Positions 2,604-54,035 of a DNA stretch of 64,000 bases are shown here, one piece after another. Numbering within the stretch: the stretch's first letter is position 1; the number at the start of each line of letters is the position of its first letter. Under the pieces are notes generated by a model. That model was not told the origin of the DNA and did not search any database. It saw only the letters and a list, made by a program, of their open reading frames with translations. A program made the position numbers and the translations under genes. The DNA comes from Candidatus Moraniibacteriota bacterium (lineage in GTDB: Bacteria; Patescibacteriota; Minisyncoccia; Moranbacterales; UBA1568): assembly GCA_018061645.1 (NCBI GenBank), contig JAGOTT010000001.1, forward strand, positions 1,090 through 65,089. Direction: 5' to 3'.

Positions 2604-3032
2604 ATGGCAAAAAACATGAAAAAAGGATTTACCCTCATCGAACTTCTCATCGTCATCGCGATTATCGGTATTCTCGCGTCGATCGTGCTTGTGAGTCTCT
2701 CGAGTGCGCGTGAGAAGGCGAATATCGCCGCGTACAAGGCACAGGTGAGCTCTCTGAAAGCGGCAGTTCAAGTTGAATGCGACACGCAGGTTCTGGACTT
2801 CGCGAACGTAAATGCATTGAAAGCTGGTGCGGATCGGATAGCCGATCTCACGGACAACGCAGATATATCAACAGGAACCGCGGCGTCTGATTGCGGAACA
2901 ACCGGAAATGGATCATACGATATTGCTGTCGAATCCGTTGATCTTGGTGGTTCTGCTGCGGCTACGGCTTGTGAAACTGCAAATGGGACTCATATCCTTC
3001 AAACAGGTGCGACGTTCCCTGGCGGATGTTAG
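2604..3032 (+). CDS. Type IV major pilin, paralogue 1 (prepilin N-terminal cleavage/methylation domain)
   Basis: [26 protein letters not shown] class-III leader with G-1, F+1, E+5. Four Cys. C-terminal GC. Confidence 0.85.
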
Positions 3033-3057
3033 TCGATATTTACCCAATAAAAAAATT

Positions 3058-3501
3058 ATGAAAAAAGGATTTACCCTCATCGAACTTCTTATTGTCATCG
3101 CGATCATCGGTATTCTCGCGTCGATCGTGCTTGTGAGTCTCTCGAGTGCGCGTGAGAAGGCGAATGTCGCCTCTTTTAAAGCACAAGCGAGTTCTCTTAA
3201 TGCTGCTATCATGATAGCATGTGACGGTGCAGTGCTTTCAGGCGCCATTGTTGAAGCGCTGCTTCCGGCTGGTGGAGGAAAAATTGATGGAGGCGCCGCT
3301 TCGGCTGCCCACTCCGCGATAGTGGACGCTGATGTAACATTGGGAACACTTGCGGCAAACTGTGGTACCACTGGAAATGGCGCCTACACGGTAACCGTTC
3401 AGTCGGTAGATCTTGGATCATCTCCCGCGGCCGTTGCTTGTGAAGCAGTTGATAGCGTGACCCTCCAGCAAACTGGTGTAACGTTTGCAGCCGGATGCTA
3501 G
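3058..3501 (+). CDS. Type IV major pilin, paralogue 2
   Basis: Internal ATG at 3058 gives [36 protein letters not shown]. First 35 aa are identical to paralogue 1; C-terminal half is divergent. Four Cys, ends AGC. Confidence 0.85.
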
Positions 3502-3523
3502 CTCAGTATTTTCGGCCTCAGGA

Positions 3524-3557
3524 AAGACAGAAGCCAGAAATGGCTTCTGTCTTTTTA
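3524..3557 (+). terminator. Rho-independent terminator after pilin 2
   Basis: AAAGACAGAAGCC-AGAAAT-GGCTTCTGTCTTTTT: 11-bp stem plus T-run. Confidence 0.6.
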
Positions 3558-3609
3558 TCGGATAGTGTATACTTTCCTCAGTGGATGAAAATAAAAACAG
3601 CATGATGAT

Positions 3610-3996
3610 ATGAAAAGCATAAAAAAAGGATTTACCCTCATCGAACTTCTTATTGTCATCGCGATTATCGGTATTCTCGCCTCAATCGTGCTTGTGAGTC
3701 TCTCGAGTGCGCGTGAACGTGCCTACGTCGCAAAATTCAAATCCGTAATCCGATCGATACAGGTGCAGGCCGTTTCCGCGTGCGATGATGGAATTATCGA
3801 TTATACTGATATCACCGGATCGTTCGGGGATATCCCGGACGATACTATCGATGTGGCGGGCATCCAGGATAATGGGCAGTCCTGTGGATTGTCGAACATC
3901 CAGTCCTTTAGTGCCGATATTCCTTCCTCTAATCTTGATGTTTCGTGTACCGCTGTCATTGAAGAGACTGGTGTGACAAGCTTTTCCGGTTGTTAA
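3610..3996 (+). CDS. Type IV major pilin, paralogue 3
   Basis: [36 protein letters not shown]. Four Cys, ends SGC. Has its own upstream TATACT box. Confidence 0.85.
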
Positions 3997-4003
3997 ACTC
4001 TAT

Positions 4004-4336
4004 ATGAATTTGTTTTTGAAGCACGGAATACTTCTTTTTTCCGCAGTTCTTCTTGCTGTTTCCACCGTCCTTGTTCCGATCGTATTGGTTCACGATAAAG
4101 AGAGCGCTCGAGTGGTCTGGTATGGTTTCCCGTTCCAATTTATCGCTCAGGATTTTAGCGGTATCGCTGAGAAATCATTTTTTCCGAGATATATCGATTT
4201 TTTTGAGAATTGGGAAAATATTCGTATTGCGGATTATTCAGTGTGGAATTTTATTTTCTCATTATTCATATTTGCTGTTTTACTTGAGTCCACTATTTTA
4301 TTCTTGGAGTGGTTGAAGCGAGTCGTAAAAGGGTGA
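4004..4336 (+). CDS. Hypothetical small membrane protein (AT-rich gene)
   Basis: 110 aa with two hydrophobic segments. GC clearly lower than the neighbouring genes. Lies between pilin 3 and the pilD fragment. Confidence 0.4.
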   Translation: MNLFLKHGILLFSAVLLAVSTVLVPIVLVHDKESARVVWYGFPFQFIAQDFSGIAEKSFFPRYIDFFENWENIRIADYSVWNFIFSLFIFAVLLESTILFLEWLKRVVKG

Positions 4337-4340
4337 CCAC

Positions 4341-4478
4341 ATGATATTCCTTCTCTTCATCTTCGGGCTCGTACTCGGGAGCTTCCTCAATGTCATACTG
4401 TTCCGATTCGGAACGGGAAAGTTAGTGACTCGAATTGAACATGGATTTCTTGACATAATATCCAAATTAGTATATATT
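4341..4478 (+). pseudogene. Truncated 5' fragment of prepilin peptidase gene (duplicate of pilD start)
   Basis: 4341-4421 encodes MIFLLFIFGLVLGSFLNVILFRFGTG. This is about 88% identical at nucleotide level to pilD 5690-5770, then diverges into AT-rich sequence and stops at 4476. Confidence 0.6.
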
Positions 4479-4508
4479 TAGGTCATATTAATAACCTTTA
4501 TAGTACTT

Positions 4509-5636
4509 ATGTTCGTCAGAAGAGATATCCAAGATGAAGTGCAGAAGTCCCTTTTCAAAGGGAAAATAATCGTTTTGTACGGAGCGCGGCAGGTCGGAAA
4601 GACGACTCTGGTTCAAGAAATCTTGCGGGAATCCGGTTCTGATTCCGTGTATCTGAATTGCGATGAGCCCGACATCAGGATGGCGCTGACGGATAAGACT
4701 TCGACGGAATTGAAATCATTTATCGGCTCAAAACGTCTCGTGGTCATCGACGAGGCGCAGCGCGTGGAGAATATCGGGCTGACATTGAAATTGATCGCGG
4801 ACACTTTCCCTGAGACGCAGATCATTGCGACGGGGTCTTCGTCGTTCGAATTGTCCGGAAAAATCGCGGAGCCGTTGACCGGACGGAAACGGGAATTTTT
4901 TCTCTATCCGTTTTCTGTCGGCGAGCTTCTCCGGACAGAAACACCGATCGAGGCGGATCGTCTTTTGGAAGATCGGCTGATATTCGGTATGTACCCCGGC
5001 GTGATGATGAGTGGAACCGAACGGGGGAACAGGGTGCGCGAACTCGCGACGAGTTATTCGTACAAGGATGTGCTTGCGTATCAGAATATCCGCAACCCGG
5101 AACTTCTGGAAAAACTTCTGCAGGCATTGGCGCTTCAGATCGGAAACGAGGTTTCCTATACCGAACTCGCGCAGACCGTGGGCGCGAACAAGGTTACCGT
5201 GGAGAACTATGTCCGTATTCTGGAGCAGGCGTATATCGTGTTCCGTGTCGGACCGTTCTCGCGGAATGTGAGAAACGAGCTCAAAAAGAAACGGAAAATC
5301 TATTTTTACGACCTTGGTATGCGAAATGCGCTTATCAACAATCTCAATCCGATCGCGCTCCGGCAGGATATAGGAGCTTTGTGGGAGAATTTTCTCGTGA
5401 GCGAGCGATTGAAGCGGAATAGCAATGCCGGTATCGCAGTGAATCGATATTTTTGGCGCACGACAAGCGGGAAGGAAATAGATTATCTCGAGGATGCCGG
5501 TGGTGCGCTTCGGGGCTATGAATTCAAATGGAGGAAAGAGAGATTTTCAATCCCGAAAGAATTTCTGATCGGATATCCGGGGAGCGATGTGTCGCTGGTA
5601 AATCGTGAGAATTATCGTGAATTCCTTACGCTGTGA
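4509..5636 (+). CDS. AAA-family ATPase with DUF4143-type C-terminal domain (COG1373-like ATP-binding protein)
   Basis: 375 aa. Walker A LYGARQVGKTTL, Walker B VVIDEAQ. Architecture typical of COG1373 ATPases. Sits inside the duplicated pilD-start boundaries. Confidence 0.75.
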   Translation: MFVRRDIQDEVQKSLFKGKIIVLYGARQVGKTTLVQEILRESGSDSVYLNCDEPDIRMALTDKTSTELKSFIGSKRLVVIDEAQRVENIGLTLKLIADTFPETQIIATGSSSFELSGKIAEPLTGRKREFFLYPFSVGELLRTETPIEADRLLEDRLIFGMYPGVMMSGTERGNRVRELATSYSYKDVLAYQNIRNPELLEKLLQALALQIGNEVSYTELAQTVGANKVTVENYVRILEQAYIVFRVGPFSRNVRNELKKKRKIYFYDLGMRNALINNLNPIALRQDIGALWENFLVSERLKRNSNAGIAVNRYFWRTTSGKEIDYLEDAGGALRGYEFKWRKERFSIPKEFLIGYPGSDVSLVNRENYREFLTL

Positions 5637-5689
5637 ATGTCGTATGCGCTGATGCGATCACTCCCTGTATTCCATGATACAATGTCCGC

Positions 5690-6481
5690 ATGGTATTCAT
5701 TCTCTTCATCTTCGGGCTCGTTCTCGGGAGTTTTCTCAATGTCGTGCTGTTCCGATTCGGAACGGGAGAAACGATGGTTTCGGGGCGGTCGCGGTGCAAC
5801 GCGTGTCGGGAGCCGATTGCGTGGTATGACAATATTCCGCTTCTCTCCTTTGTTTTTCTCCGTGGGAAGTGTCGGAAGTGCGGCGCGAAGATTTCTCTTC
5901 AATATCCGGCGGTCGAGCTTTCGACCGCGCTCCTGTTCGCGTTCGCAGGGGTGAGATTTTATGTGCCGGAAAGCGTGAATGCGGCGCTCGAGACGACTCT
6001 TGCATTGGGTCTTATCGCGACGCTCGTCGTCATCTTCGTCTACGACCTCCGGCACATGGAGATTCCCGTGTCCGCGCTCGGTTTCGGGATACTCTGGACA
6101 ATGTTCTCGCTTTTTTTCCTGTGGTGGCTCGCGTTGCCGCGGGAAGCGTTTCTCGATTCCCGGTTCTTCGACGGTCTGGTCGGCGGAGCGATCGCCTTTT
6201 CGCTCTTCTATGCGATCGTCTTTTTTTCGAAAGAGACATGGATGGGGGAGGGGGATGCATGGCTCGCGCTCCTTCTCGGCCTCGCCGTCGGATGGAAACT
6301 GCTCCTGCCTGCGCTCACGCTCGCGTTCGGGTCGGGGGCGATCGTCGGTATCGCGCTCATCGCGATGAAACGGAAGGAGATGCAAAGCCGGATTCCTTTC
6401 GGACCGTTCCTCGCAGCCTCCGTGCTTTTCATGTTGTTTTTTGGTACAATGGTGAAGCGATACTTTTTCTTCGGAATGTGA
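5690..6481 (+). CDS. pilD: Prepilin peptidase PilD (A24 family)
   Basis: 263 aa. N-terminal Zn-binding CNAC...CRKC. Multiple TM helices. Confidence 0.85.
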   Translation: MVFILFIFGLVLGSFLNVVLFRFGTGETMVSGRSRCNACREPIAWYDNIPLLSFVFLRGKCRKCGAKISLQYPAVELSTALLFAFAGVRFYVPESVNAALETTLALGLIATLVVIFVYDLRHMEIPVSALGFGILWTMFSLFFLWWLALPREAFLDSRFFDGLVGGAIAFSLFYAIVFFSKETWMGEGDAWLALLLGLAVGWKLLLPALTLAFGSGAIVGIALIAMKRKEMQSRIPFGPFLAASVLFMLFFGTMVKRYFFFGM

Positions 6482-7056
6482 ACGATCGAATCAGGAATCA
6501 GGAATCAGGAATCAGGAATCATGCTCGAAGGAGTAATGGATTCACGCTTGTCGAACTCGTGGTTTCCATGGCGATCCTTTCGACTATGGCGGCGGTGACC
6601 ATCATCTCGATGGGAGGATCGAAGACGAGGCAGGAGGTCGAAGGCGCGGCGCGCCAGCTTGCCGCAGCGATCCGCGAGACTCAGAATTATGCGCTTACCG
6701 GGAAGAATATCGGTGCGGCAGGGGACGTGCCGTGCCAGTTCCGCGTGAATGTGAATATCGGTACGTCGGTCTCCGATTTCACGGTGCAACAGATCAGGTT
6801 CGTATCCGGAACATGCGATACGAATTCTGGCGCACCGATGACGTATTCTCTTCCAAGCGGAGTCCAATTTTCCGCGGATGCCCATGTCAGGTTCGATGTC
6901 CCGCGCGGCGAACCGAAAAATTCCGCCGGAACGGAAATCGGTACTTCCGGAGTGACGCATGTGGATTTCTCGTTCGCGAAGAACGGTTCGACCGCGCATG
7001 TGTGCGTGTATCCGCTCGGACGGGTGGAAGAGAAAATCGGAGTGAATTGCATTTGA
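6478..7056 (+). CDS. Minor pilin / pseudopilin (GspH-like), GTG start overlapping the pilD stop (ATGTGA)
   Basis: Frame 1 has no in-frame ATG. GTG at 6478 gives MNDRIRNQESGIRNHARRSN|GFTLVELVVSMAIL, a basic leader followed by a canonical G/FTLVE site. The alternative ATG at 6521 is in another frame. Start remains uncertain. Confidence 0.5.
   Translation: MNDRIRNQESGIRNHARRSNGFTLVELVVSMAILSTMAAVTIISMGGSKTRQEVEGAARQLAAAIRETQNYALTGKNIGAAGDVPCQFRVNVNIGTSVSDFTVQQIRFVSGTCDTNSGAPMTYSLPSGVQFSADAHVRFDVPRGEPKNSAGTEIGTSGVTHVDFSFAKNGSTAHVCVYPLGRVEEKIGVNCI
6488..6520 (+). repeat. Heptanucleotide tandem repeat (GAATCAG) x4.7
   Basis: Direct reading: gaatcag gaatcag gaatcag gaatcag gaatc. Lies inside the predicted leader-peptide coding region of the next gene. 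Confidence 0.9.
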
Positions 7057-49427: not shown

Positions 49428-52400
49428 ATGGGAACTGGGAGATTGTTCGGTATAGCATCGTTATCTGCGGGAATCATTTTCGCGGTGTTTTTTCTTGTGC
49501 GGGATATCGTTCATGACGAAACCTTTTCGCCTGGGTCGGTGAATATCTCGGCGGCTCCGAGGACGAATGAAGCATCCGCCGGATCCGTGCTTTCGGAGAC
49601 GGATTCGCAGGAAGGTCGATCGGAGACTGCCGGTGATGAGGACTTCCTGCGCCGGTTACTGGGTGTGAGCGGGAACGGTATCGATATCCATATTGACGAG
49701 TTTCCCCGTCACGGCATCGAGGCCGAACACATTGATTCGAACTCCGTCACGAGCCGGACGATTCGCGACCGTACTATCGAGGGTATCGATATCGACAAGG
49801 GAGCTGATCTTGATATCGGTTCTTTGAATGTCTCCGGCGATGTGGATATCGCTGGTATCCTCGAGTCAGGCGGGCTTATCGTGTCCGGCGACGTGGATAT
49901 CCTCGGCGATCTCTCTGCGGTGGGACTCGATATCTCCGGCGATACGACTCTCCAAGGCGATCTCACGGTCGCGGGTTCCATTTCCGGTTCTTTCTCCGGT
50001 TCTTTCGCGCCGACCGGGGATGTGGATATGCTCGGGAATATCATGACGAATATCGGCGATAGCGGAACGGACTTCACTTCGTCCGGAGGTCTCACGCTTG
50101 CCGGTGCTCTCACGCTCACCCCGCTTACTCCGGGGTCGATTCCGTTTATCGGTATCGCAGGCGTCATGAGCCAGGACAACGCGAATCTTTTTTGGGACGA
50201 CACGAGCAATCGGCTGGGTATCGGCACGACAAGCCCCGAGGCAACCCTTGATGTCCGTGGTCCTCTAGGTGTTTTCAGGGATATAACTGGCACAGGCATA
50301 GTCTCTGATTATTATTACGGAGTTGATTATCTAACATCTGTTTTTCAAATAGATGCGAACATTCAATATGGGATAGCCTATGTCGGAGCAGGTAATAATC
50401 ATTATTCAGTATGGCAAGAATATATAAAAACTCGGTCAACTGATGGAACCACCTATGCCATCGTTCACGATGGCGACGAACTCGGAAGATTCAATTTTCA
50501 TGGTGACGACGGGAGTAATTTAGCACAGGGTGCCATGATACAGGTTAGTGTAGATGGAACGCCTGGGGAAGATGATATGCCAGGGAGGATAAAATTTTGG
50601 ACAACACCAGCCGGAGCAAACTTTCCCTTAGAAAGGATGACCATTAAAAGCACTGGCAACGTCGGCATCGGGACAGCGAGTCCGACGACAAAACTTGATG
50701 TTGTAGGAAACATAAGGACAAATGGATATTTCAACGCAGGGGATGTGACAATGTTAAATGGAACTGCGCTCTACAGTGCAAATGCACCAAGTTTTGATAT
50801 TTACGAAAGTAATGCCAGTAGCAAACTATATATATCAGCAAGTGGTGGACTAATCTTGGGGCTAAAAAGTGATGGGACGAATACCGGCAACGTCGGCATC
50901 GGGACGGCGAGCCCATCTACGAAACTTGAAATATCGGGGGATGTTATTGGTAGCGGTGTCGCTTTGACAGTAAAAAATCTGGCAACCAGCGCATCATATG
51001 CACGACTTAATCTGGTTGCAAATGGCAAAACATCAGACATATTCTTTGATGGTTCTGGAGGTTTTATTTCCGGAGGAGGTTTGATTTTCCGCTCGAATGG
51101 AGATCCGCTACATTTTTTCACGGGTTCAAATAATCGAGTTACCATCAACAGTCATGGCAAAGTCGGTATCGGTGACACCACTCCCGACGGACTGCTCGAC
51201 ATCGAACCGACCGGAGCGGCGACTGCCTCCTCCTATGGGATCAATCTCTCGAATCTTACCACTAACGCGACGACCGACGGTGTCAACAAATATGGTGCCT
51301 ACCTCACCTCGACTGGTGCCTGGACCGGAGGTGGCGGTACCGCGACCAACAACTACGGACTCTATGTCGATACTGTTTCCGGCGCAGACAACAACTACGG
51401 AGCCTATATAGCCGGCAACGTCGGTATCGGGACGACAAGTCCGGGGGCGAAGCTGGACGTCAGTGGAAATTTTCAACTTAGTGGAGACCTAGTTATGACC
51501 GGTGTCGCCTCAAAGATCTGGGGGGATACGGATTTCAGTTATTTGCAGTTATATAATGCTTTTGGACAAGGCGAGACACAAATTGGCAATGGACATACGA
51601 ATGGTGGAATAAGATTCTTCACAGCTCCGACAATTGCCAAAACTTATGTTGAAGCAATGAGAATAACGCCAACCGGCAACGTTGGTATCGGAACGACAAA
51701 TCCGGGGACTGCTTTAGATGTTGGTTCGGGTAATATACAAACTACAGGAACAATTAAAGGCGTATCGTTAATCGCTAACGGGACAAGCAATTTCAAACTT
51801 GTTACTGCAAACGCCCCTGCTTCTTGGAGTGGAAATGGTCCAGCCGGAGTGCTACAGCTTCAAGATATTAACGGAAATTACAGCACTACGATCAATTCCA
51901 ACTCAAGAGGATTGCAAACACTCGGATTGTATGTGGATGGCCTTGGCGTTAATAATTATATTGCAGGCAACGTCGGTATCGGCACGACGAGCCCAGGTTC
52001 AAAACTTTCGTTTGTGGCGGATACGATCGCGGCTGGCGGAATAACTTTTGGAAGTGATACCAATCTGTACCGCTCCTCCGCTGATATCCTTAAGACGGAT
52101 GACACTCTTTCGGTCGGAACGCAGTTGCTTACGAATGTGGTGAAGAAACTCGACAGCTCAAAATTCATGCTTGTCGGGAGCGGGAGTGATTTGTATGTAG
52201 GCGGAAGCAGCGGCGTGGGTCAATATGCGAACGCTATTTTTGATATATCCGGCAATGTTGGTATCGGCACGACAAGTCCATCGTATAAGCTTGATGTTGC
52301 AGGGTCGATTCGCACCGCATCGGGACAAGGAATATTTACCGGACTGTCAGCGTTAGCTCAAAATGCCAATGGTCTTATTGTGTTTGGTGGTGATAATGGT

Positions 52401-54035
52401 GGCACCGTGTACGCGAGGGGCGATGTCGCTGGCGCAGACAATAACTTAAATTTGCAAGCCTTTGATGATATTAATTTTGATACGTTTCCGAGCGGTTCTC
52501 CTGTGACTGGTATGGTCATAAAAAAGACCGGCAACGTCGGTATCGGGACGACGAGTCCGACGGCGTTATTGGATTTAAACTCAACAAATGGCGGTGATAC
52601 TGATATATTAAGAATTTCAAATCCTTCGGCAAGCGCCGGATCTATTTATGGATTAGCTTGGCGAGATACCGCAAATAACAAGACGTATGCTCGTATCGCC
52701 TCATCATACGGTGCTTCATATGTCAATTCCTATTTGTCCTTAAGCGTGGCGGATAGTACGGAGACGCTACAGGAAAGAATGAGAATTGATAAATCTGGCA
52801 ATGTCGGTATCGGCACGACAAGTCCGAGTGAAAAACTGGATGTAAATGGTCACATTAAGGTTAATAACTATATCAAGCTGGGTAATAATACGGGTGGTTT
52901 CGTTGATCCAAACGGAAATCCTTTCTTATATACGACTTCAAGCGGTCTCGAAACACGAGTAAATGCCTATTATACAGGCGGGTTTGTTTCACTTTATTCC
53001 GGTTCCCCGAATGCGGAAAGGATGAGAGTGACAAGCGCAGGCAACGTCGGTATCGGCACGACGAATCAATTCGGCTCCGGTTCCGGCGTGCTCGCGCTCG
53101 GCAATGCCACGACCAACCCGACCACGACCCTTACGAACGCCGCGCTCCTCTATGCTACCGGAGGGGAGATGTATGTCTACGACGCGGCGGGAAACGCGAC
53201 GCAGATCTCCCCGCATGATGATATGGGGTTGTGGCACTACAACTCCACGAACACGAGAATGGGGAAGACGCTCGAGGTGAGCATGGAGCTCCTTACTAAG
53301 GATCTCGATCGGATTCTCGGCGGCGGATACGTGTACGAGAACGGTGATCGTCTGTTCTCCGGAGAGAACCGGATCGATTCGCTCTCGCTTCGGACCGACG
53401 AATATGCGACGACCCTTGGTGCGTTCCGGGCATCCGTCGATGAGAATCTCCTTTCCGTGAGTGCGAGTCTGTCGGACTCCGGAAAGGATATTGACGAGCT
53501 TACCGAAAAGATCGAAGGCCTCGACGCAAAGATGGCGAGCACAGAGGAAAGCCTCGAAGATCGGATCGTCGTACTCGAGAACGGCGTGACGTCCCGAGAC
53601 ACGCAAATTTCCGCACTCATGGATTTCTATTCCGCACTCGACCTGGGGAACGTGCTTTTGCTTGATATCGACGGGAACCTCACGATTCCGTCAGGAGACC
53701 TCCTGATCCGGAATATCGAAGCACAGGGGACGATCCGTGCCGAGGACGTGGAGGCGGAAGACGGTATCACTGCCGGAGGCATCGTCGCGGGCGCCGCTAT
53801 CGCCGCGGGGGAGGAATCTTCCGGATCCGGGACGCTCAAGGCGGGGGACGACAGGACCGTCATCGATACGGAGTATGCCAACGAAGACGCCAAGATATTC
53901 ATCACGATCAAGGGTTCCCCACACGGGAAATCCCTTTATGTCGATGATATCGAGGAGGGCGAGAGCTTCACGGTGAAAGTGGACGGAGATGTCTCCGACA
54001 AGGATATCGATTTCTTCTGGTTCGTGCTTCGGTAG
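49428..54035 (+). CDS. Giant cell-surface protein with about 10 tail-fibre-like GNVGIGTTSP(S/G)xKLDV repeats and C-terminal coiled-coil/beta domain
   Basis: 1535 aa. N-terminal anchor FGIASLSAGIIFAVFFLV. The repeat motif is characteristic of phage tail-fibre and bacterial fibrous adhesin repeats. Confidence 0.8.
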   Translation: MGTGRLFGIASLSAGIIFAVFFLVRDIVHDETFSPGSVNISAAPRTNEASAGSVLSETDSQEGRSETAGDEDFLRRLLGVSGNGIDIHIDEFPRHGIEAEHIDSNSVTSRTIRDRTIEGIDIDKGADLDIGSLNVSGDVDIAGILESGGLIVSGDVDILGDLSAVGLDISGDTTLQGDLTVAGSISGSFSGSFAPTGDVDMLGNIMTNIGDSGTDFTSSGGLTLAGALTLTPLTPGSIPFIGIAGVMSQDNANLFWDDTSNRLGIGTTSPEATLDVRGPLGVFRDITGTGIVSDYYYGVDYLTSVFQIDANIQYGIAYVGAGNNHYSVWQEYIKTRSTDGTTYAIVHDGDELGRFNFHGDDGSNLAQGAMIQVSVDGTPGEDDMPGRIKFWTTPAGANFPLERMTIKSTGNVGIGTASPTTKLDVVGNIRTNGYFNAGDVTMLNGTALYSANAPSFDIYESNASSKLYISASGGLILGLKSDGTNTGNVGIGTASPSTKLEISGDVIGSGVALTVKNLATSASYARLNLVANGKTSDIFFDGSGGFISGGGLIFRSNGDPLHFFTGSNNRVTINSHGKVGIGDTTPDGLLDIEPTGAATASSYGINLSNLTTNATTDGVNKYGAYLTSTGAWTGGGGTATNNYGLYVDTVSGADNNYGAYIAGNVGIGTTSPGAKLDVSGNFQLSGDLVMTGVASKIWGDTDFSYLQLYNAFGQGETQIGNGHTNGGIRFFTAPTIAKTYVEAMRITPTGNVGIGTTNPGTALDVGSGNIQTTGTIKGVSLIANGTSNFKLVTANAPASWSGNGPAGVLQLQDINGNYSTTINSNSRGLQTLGLYVDGLGVNNYIAGNVGIGTTSPGSKLSFVADTIAAGGITFGSDTNLYRSSADILKTDDTLSVGTQLLTNVVKKLDSSKFMLVGSGSDLYVGGSSGVGQYANAIFDISGNVGIGTTSPSYKLDVAGSIRTASGQGIFTGLSALAQNANGLIVFGGDNGGTVYARGDVAGADNNLNLQAFDDINFDTFPSGSPVTGMVIKKTGNVGIGTTSPTALLDLNSTNGGDTDILRISNPSASAGSIYGLAWRDTANNKTYARIASSYGASYVNSYLSLSVADSTETLQERMRIDKSGNVGIGTTSPSEKLDVNGHIKVNNYIKLGNNTGGFVDPNGNPFLYTTSSGLETRVNAYYTGGFVSLYSGSPNAERMRVTSAGNVGIGTTNQFGSGSGVLALGNATTNPTTTLTNAALLYATGGEMYVYDAAGNATQISPHDDMGLWHYNSTNTRMGKTLEVSMELLTKDLDRILGGGYVYENGDRLFSGENRIDSLSLRTDEYATTLGAFRASVDENLLSVSASLSDSGKDIDELTEKIEGLDAKMASTEESLEDRIVVLENGVTSRDTQISALMDFYSALDLGNVLLLDIDGNLTIPSGDLLIRNIEAQGTIRAEDVEAEDGITAGGIVAGAAIAAGEESSGSGTLKAGDDRTVIDTEYANEDAKIFITIKGSPHGKSLYVDDIEEGESFTVKVDGDVSDKDIDFFWFVLR

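Follow-up and report, generated by a model that had tools for sequence, protein, structure and literature searches.

The pilD locus and its duplicated start

The window considered here is a 64,000-nucleotide (nt) stretch of contig JAGOTT010000001.1 (GenBank assembly GCA_018061645.1, Candidatus Moraniibacteriota bacterium), and it matches a metagenome-assembled genome (MAG) of Candidatus Moranbacteria at NCBI (proteins MBP9751233-36). Near its beginning lies a type IV pilus operon in which a gene for an ATPase with AAA_14 and DUF4143 domains is located between two copies of the 5' end of the prepilin peptidase gene pilD. A 1.25-kb insertion has entered the pilD 5' end and a restored pilD follows it downstream; this footprint is real, as shown below by comparison with other assemblies and with relatives. 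Other loci used for comparison are designated by L numbers. The features of the region are as follows.

60-1157: PilT
1162-2373: PilC
2604-3032, about 3040-3501 and 3610-3996: three pilin genes
4004-4336, plus strand: ORF110, an open reading frame (ORF) for a small two-helix membrane protein, read as a resident gene of the pilin-pilD interval
4334-4418, plus strand: left copy of the pilD start (direct repeat 1), pilD -7 to +78, read as the displaced resident 5' end
4341-4481, plus strand: 46-codon ORF, in which 26 residues of PilD run on into 20 cassette codons
4400-4414, strand-less: perfect 15-nt palindrome GTTCCGATTCGGAAC, 4 nt ahead of the insertion junction, with a second occurrence at 5749-5763
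4419-5665, plus strand: cassette proper, 1247 nt of non-pilD DNA comprising a short 5' flank, promoter/operator, the ATPase gene and a 29-nt 3' flank
4450-4478, plus strand: predicted sigma-70-type promoter TTGACA-17-TATATT, with inverted half-sites around the -10 box
4509-5636, plus strand: AAA_14 + DUF4143 ATPase / PD-(D/E)XK nuclease-like protein, 375 aa
5666-5767, plus strand: right copy of the pilD start (direct repeat 2), about -24 to +78, holding an extended -10-like box
5675-5683: extended -10-like box TGATACAAT, inside the right copy
5690-6481, plus strand: intact prepilin peptidase gene pilD, 263 aa

A preliminary description of this DNA, made from the sequence alone, had reported a duplicated pilD start of about 81 bp on either side of the ATPase gene, and a repeat search bears this out as an 85-nt direct repeat (4334-4418 and 5683-5767) with 89% identity and a spacing of 1349 nt; the flanks of the ATPase gene match each other by BLAST with E=7e-29. 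Other direct repeats of at least 40 nt in the window are confined to pilin N-termini and one repeat-protein gene. Both copies encode the PilD N-terminus (MIFLLFIFGLVLGSFLNVILFRFGTG and MVFILFIFGLVLGSFLNVVLFRFGTG), and the right copy continues into a gene whose product carries the Pfam domains A24_N_bact (E=7e-32) and Peptidase_A24. The left ORF runs into AT-rich sequence, as had been described, and its stop is the TAG at 4479-4481 rather than at 4476. A single ORF (4509-5636), with AAA_14 and DUF4143, lies between the copies, which agrees with the one ATPase gene first noticed there. The low GC content noted earlier is also present, with 38% in ORF110 and 26% in 4419-4508, compared with 50% in the ATPase gene, 56% in pilD and 55% in the whole window.

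Neither the ORF list nor a domain search of the 1247-nt insert revealed a transposase, integrase or other mobility gene, again as first described, and the repeat search found no terminal inverted repeats at the cassette ends. An insertion sequence or DNA transposon was rejected on these two grounds and because the duplication measures 85-102 nt and is not short and fixed.

Occurrence of the insertion in other assemblies and relatives

The window derives from a MAG, and repeats can mislead assemblers, so that an assembly or binning artefact or a chimeric contig has to be considered. A Logan contig of SRR11088391, possibly built from the same reads as the MAG, is 100% identical to the window over 3687-6516. 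Identical structure has also been found in assemblies of at least four other samples (JGI 3300056789; Logan SRR34217545, SRR11524814 and DRR783842), with both junctions spanned by contigs. An artefact is already contradicted by these assemblies, and its probability is close to nil.

Uninterrupted junctions between pilin and pilD are found in relatives. In L002 and L011, whose PilD proteins are 87% and 80% identical to that of the window, the pilin gene is followed by an interval of about 100-135 nt and a pilD gene with one start, and most of about 80 other pilD loci are likewise uninterrupted. These loci support the suggestion, already made in the preliminary description, of an insertion that left a displaced pilD start and a rebuilt gene. 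The ATPase and ORF110 are both missing from all 80 genome loci that encode relatives of PilD. A second pilD start is absent from 75 of 77 pilD loci tested, all 75 from other lineages and only the lineage of the window being positive, and is not found in L166, L174, L175 or L176; the idea that the pilD 5' end is a general hotspot in Patescibacteria was rejected on these counts.

A trace of the ATPase has been detected in one diverged lineage. In L174 (1964-2169) and L175 (997-1200), the pilin terminator precedes a remnant, 49 codons long, of the 3' end of the ATPase gene. Next come a homologous 3' flank and pilD, whose product is 82% identical to that of the window (79% at the nucleotide level). 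The remnant covers ATPase residues 326-374 with 71% identity and carries the change E338K. It indicates that the same insertion exists, in decayed form, in a diverged lineage, and the insertion is not private to the window genome. No ATPase trace was found in L002, L011, L166 or L176, and this distribution of traces requires either precise loss, through recombination between the repeats, or transfer between lineages. In the L174/L175 lineage, the gene caller extends PilD to 278 aa, into the region of the remnant.

The inserted ATPase gene and its promoter

The ATPase gene is structurally intact. Its 375-aa product matches AAA_14 (E=3e-31; PF13173, 108.7 bits) and DUF4143 (E=2e-43; PF13635, 148.4 bits), both scores being well over the Pfam gathering scores, and residues 1-373 of 375 are matched by PADLOC model PDLC04789 of the candidate defence family PDC-S01 (E=1.5e-153). 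Walker A (GARQVGKTT, residues 25-33) and Walker B (VVIDEAQ, residues 78-84) motifs are present; in 37 homologues, G25, R27, G30-T33 and D81-Q84 are invariant and A26, Q28 and V29 are at least 90% conserved. D325 and E338-x-K340 are invariant in the same set. In an AlphaFold2 model (mean predicted local distance difference test score 79), the C-terminus forms an alpha-beta-beta-beta-alpha-beta unit with D325, E338 and K340 on consecutive strands, a placement that gives a PD-(D/E)XK arrangement. The C-terminus is, according to this model, a PD-(D/E)XK nuclease-like domain with a predicted catalytic D...ExK motif. The nearest solved folds to the model are the archaeal AAA+ proteins 2fna and 2qen, then Orc1/Cdc6, RuvB and MuB, and no relative in the PDB was detected by sequence.

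DUF4143 has been placed in the PD-(D/E)XK superfamily (PMC3424549), but there is almost no functional information on DUF4143 or COG1373 in the literature. PDC-S01, described as an ATPase with a PD-(D/E)XK domain, is the fourth commonest defence candidate in prokaryotes and is without experimental validation (PMC12988326). The PDC candidates of PADLOC were discovered as genes embedded within other defence operons, in a study that gives no account of the route by which genes become embedded (bioRxiv 10.1101/2024.01.29.577857). The suspicion that the ATPase is related to defence was well placed, as far as its full-length match to this candidate family goes, and the protein is most likely, judging from its sequence, a candidate DNA-targeting defence or abortive-infection protein. 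Patescibacteria contain many homologues of 65-80% identity, and some are found in Bacteroidota as well. Homologues are rare on plasmids and viral contigs: they are present in just 32 of 72,556 plasmid records, at less than 60% identity in every case, and in two viral contigs, which is not informative as to carriage by either.

Upstream of the gene, the promoter at 4450-4478 matches the consensus at 11 of 12 positions and is the best site in 3400-6700. Half-sites with the consensus GACCTAAAT / ATTTAGGTC are inverted and bracket its -10 box, and both promoter and half-sites are conserved in front of about 20 homologues of the ATPase gene from different genomes. The inverted half-sites probably represent an operator, and the ATPase would be expressed from its own promoter and probably autoregulated, perhaps through this putative operator. 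Nucleotide homology to cassettes in unrelated genomes extends only from about 60 nt upstream of the ATG through the stop codon, which points to a self-contained module of promoter, operator and gene. The conserved module (4450-4508) is also seen in the upstream regions of L083 and L085-L107, with a third half-site, ACCTAAAT, downstream.

pilD-start copies in sister strains

Cluster and exact-protein look-ups provided four further assemblies of the same lineage: L168 (JGI 3300056789, a 215-kb contig), L170 (SRR11524814), L171 (DRR783842) and L082 with L169 (SRR34217545). All four contain the same cassette, with less than 1% differences over window positions 4419-5667. The left junction, at pilD +78 (GGGA/AAGTTAGTGACT), is common to all, and so is the 3' flank; the left pilD copy is different in each strain. 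L171 has its own allele as left copy, preceded by a terminator and a box of native type (TGTGATGACATGAATGC-ATG); this allele is only 86% identical to the right copy (11 of 78 nt differ). L168 has three pilD starts and two cassettes, in the order native box, copy A, MNT/HepT toxin-antitoxin pair, copy B, ATPase cassette, copy C and pilD, the second-cassette region being L168 3615-4729. A similar array is found in L170, where the native box is followed by a decayed copy A (ATG lost, indels), a gene for a 128-aa coiled-coil protein, copy B, the ATPase cassette and copy C (second-cassette region L170 175-975). Each extra cassette is bounded by its own pilD-start copy, so that both strains have three pilD starts in succession. 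Contig breaks in L082/L169 are explained by a 30-nt identity between the copies in that strain and are uninformative about circular forms.

The left copy is not part of a second functional peptidase gene, a possibility that the preliminary description had kept in view; it encodes 26 PilD residues and has no catalytic Peptidase_A24 domain, whereas the right gene has both domains. The 46-codon ORF, of which only A24_N_bact positions 1-24 are matched by Pfam, under the curated cut-off, has counterparts of the same structure in L168 (identical), L170 and L171, and is probably a by-product of the insertion.

Where truncated and functional copies differ, most changes are synonymous or exchange V and I, and the ratios of nonsynonymous to synonymous change (pN/pS) are 0.11-0.34 (p=5e-4 for the left versus the right copy of L171; p=3e-6 for the left copy of L171 versus that of the window, which differ at 16 positions). 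For comparison, pN/pS between the functional pilD genes of L002 and the window is 0.13. Because of these low ratios, the left copies are considered to be displaced native alleles that evolved within working genes. The left copy of the window is accordingly best regarded, on its substitution pattern, as a displaced native pilD start and not as a decaying duplicate, and the 11% divergence of the two copies would be allelic, that is, between a resident and an imported start, rather than a record of the age of the insertion. A plain in-situ duplication, with neutral decay of the left copy and without any transfer between strains, would give that divergence the opposite meaning. Such a history could account for a few sites at which the copies are more alike than either is to L002, and three of the seven coding differences do look derived in the left copy. 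However, the pN/pS values and the mostly synonymous or V/I changes contradict neutral decay, as do left copies that differ by up to 16 of 78 nt between strains next to a cassette that differs by less than 1%, and a truly decayed copy (copy A of L170) looks quite different. This history is already contradicted and very improbable, and the pN/pS and strain comparisons rule out the use of repeat divergence as an insertion clock.

The right copies of L168, L170 and L171 are mutually identical, including about 24 nt upstream, despite their differing left copies; the right copy is linked to the cassette. These 24 nt are homologous to the native pilD upstream regions of L002 and of copy A in L168. 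A box like TGATACAAT is located 7-9 nt upstream of pilD in L002, L166 and L174, with a variant form in L171, and no clear box was seen upstream of pilD in L011 or L176. The position of the box suggests that pilD mRNA may be leaderless, and the duplicated segment may be seen as a self-sufficient 5' module.

Comparison of the window with L168 reveals a marked contrast. Over copy B and the cassette (window 4341-5665), the two are 99.5-100% identical (6 mismatches in 1325 nt), whereas copy C is 91% identical, the rest of pilD 95%, the downstream genes 94-98% and the PilT/PilC region 97.7%. Variable sites along pilD form a haplotype mosaic among the strains, and no difference separates L168 from L171 over 290 nt of pilD past +78. 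From the identity contrast and the mosaic, we infer a recent movement of the cassette together with its right copy between strains by homologous recombination.

Flanking repeats around related ATPase genes

Flanks of 900 nt on each side of homologous ATPase genes in metagenome loci were compared with each other, with a repeat threshold of E<1e-6. Direct repeats flank the gene at 25 of 67 loci; when loci with similar flanks are counted as one cluster, 11 of 31 clusters have them. The corresponding figure for control ORFs in this set of loci is 11 of 523 (2%), several of which on inspection were pilin paralogues or neighbouring cassettes. The repeats around homologues are copies of local targets, 47-158 nt long: for example, a 112-nt repeat is the 3' end of a convergent epimerase gene (L090), a 47-nt repeat is the 3' end of a Laminin_G_3 gene (L102) and a 71-nt repeat is the terminator after an HU gene (L086). 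In gut Bacteroides-like contigs (L129 4244-9013; L132 1960-8409; also L125, L126 and L136), four cassettes follow a GH20 hexosaminidase gene, each separated by a 46-nt repeat, TTTAATGTCCGTTTTCAAAACTGATACTGCCCCCATGAGATAGGGG; they encode a PDC-S01-like ATPase, a 200-aa ORF, a 482-aa ATPase_2 protein and a 430-aa AAA_14/DUF4143 protein. No cassette ends conserved beyond the promoter and the stop codon were found in the homologous loci compared, and a tRNA-type att site was rejected, as the homologous loci scanned contain no tRNA genes.

The enrichment of 11 of 31 clusters over 2% of controls, if upheld, is a lead on the mobility of this gene family. It might mean that the ATPase/PD-(D/E)XK protein itself makes the breaks for insertion, in the way put forward for restriction-modification genes, and mobilizes neighbouring cassettes in trans. 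Three of the four gut-array cassettes are ATPases (two AAA_14/DUF4143, one ATPase_2), the nuclease motif is intact, the second cassettes of L168 and L170 directly adjoin the ATPase cassette, and Furuta et al. (PMC2853133) have suggested that double-strand breakage is what insertions with long target duplication have in common. However, there are no conserved termini or recognition sequence at cassette ends, and the architecture is no different for cargo without a nuclease (the coiled-coil gene, MNT/HepT). The enrichment could instead reflect frequent recent insertion, with only neighbour-restoring insertions surviving in compact genomes, and the nuclease activity of the family is predicted from sequence and model, with no PDB relative by sequence. 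A self-mobilizing nuclease gene is considered improbable, and equally doubtful is the wider proposal that genes of the PDC-S01 type are autonomous single-gene mobile elements whose duplicated target serves as landing pad for further cassettes. If true, that proposal would explain both the embedding in operons and the arrays separated by target copies, in a bacterium of the candidate phyla radiation (CPR) as well as in gut Bacteroides-like contigs.

The insertion point

The junctions of three cassettes on the left, at about +78, about +78 and +84, are located just downstream of the palindrome at +60..+74, and the right repeats start at -24, -1 and at or before -27. In native alleles the palindrome is imperfect (GTTCCGGTTCGGGAC), whereas it is perfect in the window copies. 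It could, to go by its position, be a break-prone site or a site recognized by a recombinase.

An integrase-less, site-specific cassette has been considered, comparable to a cis-mobilizable element or to the arrangement of e14 and phage 21 at icd, in which the pilD start is attP-like, a tyrosine recombinase supplied in trans crosses at the palindromic core +60..+78 (GTTCCGRTTCGGRAC), and tandem accretion leads to arrays. A circle consisting of the cassette and one repeat would be formed, with the junction ...TGATACAATG..ATG...GGGACGGGA/AAGTTAGTGACT and the cassette 3' flank ahead. Several features fit such a process: the right copy travels with the cassette, the left copies keep the resident allele to within about 16 nt of the junction, the three junctions (about +78 to +84) stand beside the palindrome, which some copies have in perfect and native alleles in imperfect form, and the cassettes in arrays are separated by copies of the pilD start, with analogous arrays around a 46-nt repeat in gut Bacteroides-like contigs. 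Against it, no recombinase is encoded in the cassette or among the called genes of L168 about 5 kb to either side, the whole window and genome not having been scanned, as Xer-type recombinases are to be expected in any genome. Junctions and repeat extents vary (-24 versus -1 on the right, +78 versus +84 on the left), the repeats beside homologous cassettes at other loci are unrelated local sequences of 47-158 nt and the cassettes there have no conserved ends, and the 290-nt identity of L168 and L171 past +78 fits recombinational co-transfer and not crossover at a core. Altogether, site-specific integration is considered unlikely, though it deserves to be kept in mind.

Proposed mechanism

An insertion with long target duplication through break and repair, followed by recombinational spread, is the explanation that we favour, and with reasonable rather than high confidence. 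A cassette of promoter plus gene would have been inserted at codon 26/27 of pilD, with a second copy of pilD from about -24 to +78 placed after the insert. This copy, with its extended -10-like box and start codon, would rebuild pilD, and the original start would be left as the 46-codon stub. Our best guess for the founding duplication is a break near the palindrome at +60..+74, repaired with capture of foreign DNA. The unit of cassette and right copy would then spread by homologous recombination, plausibly after DNA uptake, with the pilD-start copies acting as portable homology arms; the left arm would be the resident pilD start and the right arm pilD past +78. Further cassettes (MNT/HepT, the coiled-coil gene) have been added at the same spot in other strains, and the unit can also decay, as the L174/L175 remnant shows.

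Several observations weigh against this explanation. The founding insertion is unobserved, and one junction common to all strains documents a single ATPase insertion event. The three left junctions fall within about 9 nt of each other beside a palindrome, as would be expected of a site-directed process more than of breaks at random. The evidence for recombinational spread consists of identity contrasts and mosaic single-nucleotide polymorphisms in short metagenome contigs, and L082 and L169 are linked indirectly. Relatives at 80-87% PilD identity provide the empty sites, no cassette-free strain of the same species having been found, and L002 has no trace of the ATPase although its PilD is nearer to that of the window (87%) than is that of L174 (82%), which has the remnant. 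Moreover, PDC-S01 is so far a candidate defence family.

ORF110 and the pilin-pilD interval

ORF110 has no match in Pfam, NCBIfam or PADLOC, and its database homologues are two, P0122 and P0123. P0122 is 59% identical to ORF110 and is encoded in L166 between pilin and pilD, in an interval that contains this homologue (32% GC), four other genes and no ATPase. L171 has an ORF113 that is 45% identical to ORF110; a terminator, the promoter box of the native pilD and the left pilD copy lie between it and the cassette. As homologues occupy the same interval in relatives, in L166 without the ATPase, ORF110 is taken to be a resident and intrinsically AT-rich gene; membership of the cassette was rejected because homologues are found in the pilin-pilD interval of L166, L167 and L171, that of L166 being without the ATPase. 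The preliminary description had treated 4004-4508 as one foreign AT-rich block, which does not hold: within it, cassette DNA is limited to 4419-4508, the AT-rich promoter/operator segment that goes with this ATPase gene in unrelated genomes too. Its idea of a compact mobile or defence-related module stands as regards the candidate defence family and the presence of the same cassette in four other assemblies, but the module does not include ORF110. Its central proposal, the footprint of an insertion that duplicated or restored the pilD 5' end, is upheld by the repeat, the empty sites and the junctions in the strains.

Other variable features have been observed in the neighbourhood. Pilin sets differ between near-identical strains, with three genes in the window (2604-3996) and two in L168 (2603-3432). 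The homology of the two breaks at window 2699, within the conserved coding region of the pilin N-terminus, which suggests that the pilin region is a variable segment driven by recombination. Between the pilD stop and the next pseudopilin gene (window 6488-6520) there is a tandem repeat of the heptamer GAATCAG in 4-5 copies. The pseudopilin gene, starting near 6523-6540, has the prepilin frame ..RRSNG/FTLVELVVSMAILS and no canonical in-frame start in the window, L168 or L169; at this position L002 has no heptamer repeat and a normal start (MAEKTKKRLSGFTLIEL). Expression of the pseudopilin may be phase-variable or frameshift-dependent. Farther away, window 50200-53070 contains 8-9 copies of a periodic repeat of about 270 nt (core GGCAACGTCGGTATCGGNACGAC), probably in a large ORF, which resembles the repeats of a 2537-aa Peptidase_S74-containing protein adjoining the ATPase homologue in L085.

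Relation to known systems and significance

Insertion with long target duplication was reportedly described for restriction-modification (RM) genes by Nobusato and colleagues in 2000. In later work of the Kobayashi group, RM genes without mobility genes were found to be flanked by direct repeats of more than 30 bp and variable length, present as a single copy at the empty site (PMC2853133). All RM types and a lone mcrA gene show this kind of insertion, mostly in naturally competent bacteria, and flanking repeats are significantly commoner at RM genes than at average genes; for the mechanism, double-strand breakage was suggested (Furuta, Abe and Kobayashi 2010; PMC2853133). In the terms of Furuta et al. 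(2010), the pilD locus has a repeat of 85-102 nt, hence above 30 bp, that is in single copy at the empty sites of related species (80-87% PilD identity); the insert is below 20 kb and without a mobility gene; and the repeats are derived from the target and vary in length (47-158 nt elsewhere, three extents at pilD). Shared with the RM insertions are thus a defence-type unit lacking a mobility gene, long target-derived repeats of variable length and single-gene cases. In contrast, the cargo here is a PDC-S01 ATPase-nuclease and not an RM system, the host belongs to CPR (Patescibacteria), and what is duplicated is the 5', promoter-proximal end of a gene within an operon; the duplicate must therefore carry a promoter and a start codon. 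The same spot has moreover been re-used here, which led to cassette arrays, and the repeats now differ by allele exchange and not by age.

The inserted gene itself is a typical member of the PDC-S01 / COG1373 / AAA_14-DUF4143 ATPases, with a full-length hidden Markov model match, both Pfam domains and intact Walker and D...ExK motifs. It shares with the "guilt by embedding" candidates of PADLOC its position within an unrelated operon, but that operon is a type IV pilus operon and not a BREX, DISARM, RM or Hma system. Flanking long duplications and a conserved promoter/operator are added here to what has been described for PDC-S01.

Prophage e14 and phage 21 in icd, and islands in tRNA 3' ends, use an integrase and a fixed att core and bring a replacement for the end of the target gene. 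The pilD insertion resembles e14 and phage 21 in that an incoming substitute gene end keeps the gene functional, the displaced end is left as a pseudo-fragment, and repeats range from tens to more than 100 bp. It differs from them in having no integrase, junctions that vary between cassettes, a single gene of 1.1 kb, and a replaced end that is the 5' end with its promoter. Integron arrays likewise consist of single-gene cassettes separated by a repeated element and carry accessory or defence cargo, whereas here there is no IntI or attI, the repeats are a coding 5' end and not attC hairpins, and the cassette has its own promoter; an integron cassette was rejected, since no integrase is located nearby in the L168 locus and the repeat between cassettes is the coding pilD 5' end. 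In E. coli, Pseudomonas and Vibrio pan-genomes, defence hotspots between core genes are exchanged by flanking homologous recombination. The pilD locus is similar to these hotspots in its strain-variable content (the ATPase alone, with MNT/HepT, or with the coiled-coil gene) and in exchange through flanking homology, but it is tiny (1-2.5 kb), is located inside the first 80 bases of a gene, and has duplicated gene-start copies as its arms.

Altogether, the pilD locus adds one more case to insertion with long target duplication, an event of a known kind, and its cargo is a candidate defence gene that is itself known; what it contributes is a reconstruction at strain level, together with an enrichment of long flanking repeats across the gene family. 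It provides a sequence-level picture of how a very common, uncharacterized candidate defence gene is embedded in an essential operon without breaking it, the operon staying unbroken because the insert brings or creates a second promoter and start of the target gene. Insertion with long target duplication, so far a feature of RM genes, is in this way extended to other defence-type cargo and to the CPR. Once duplicated, the target can become a small recombination hotspot at which defence cassettes are swapped, stacked and lost.

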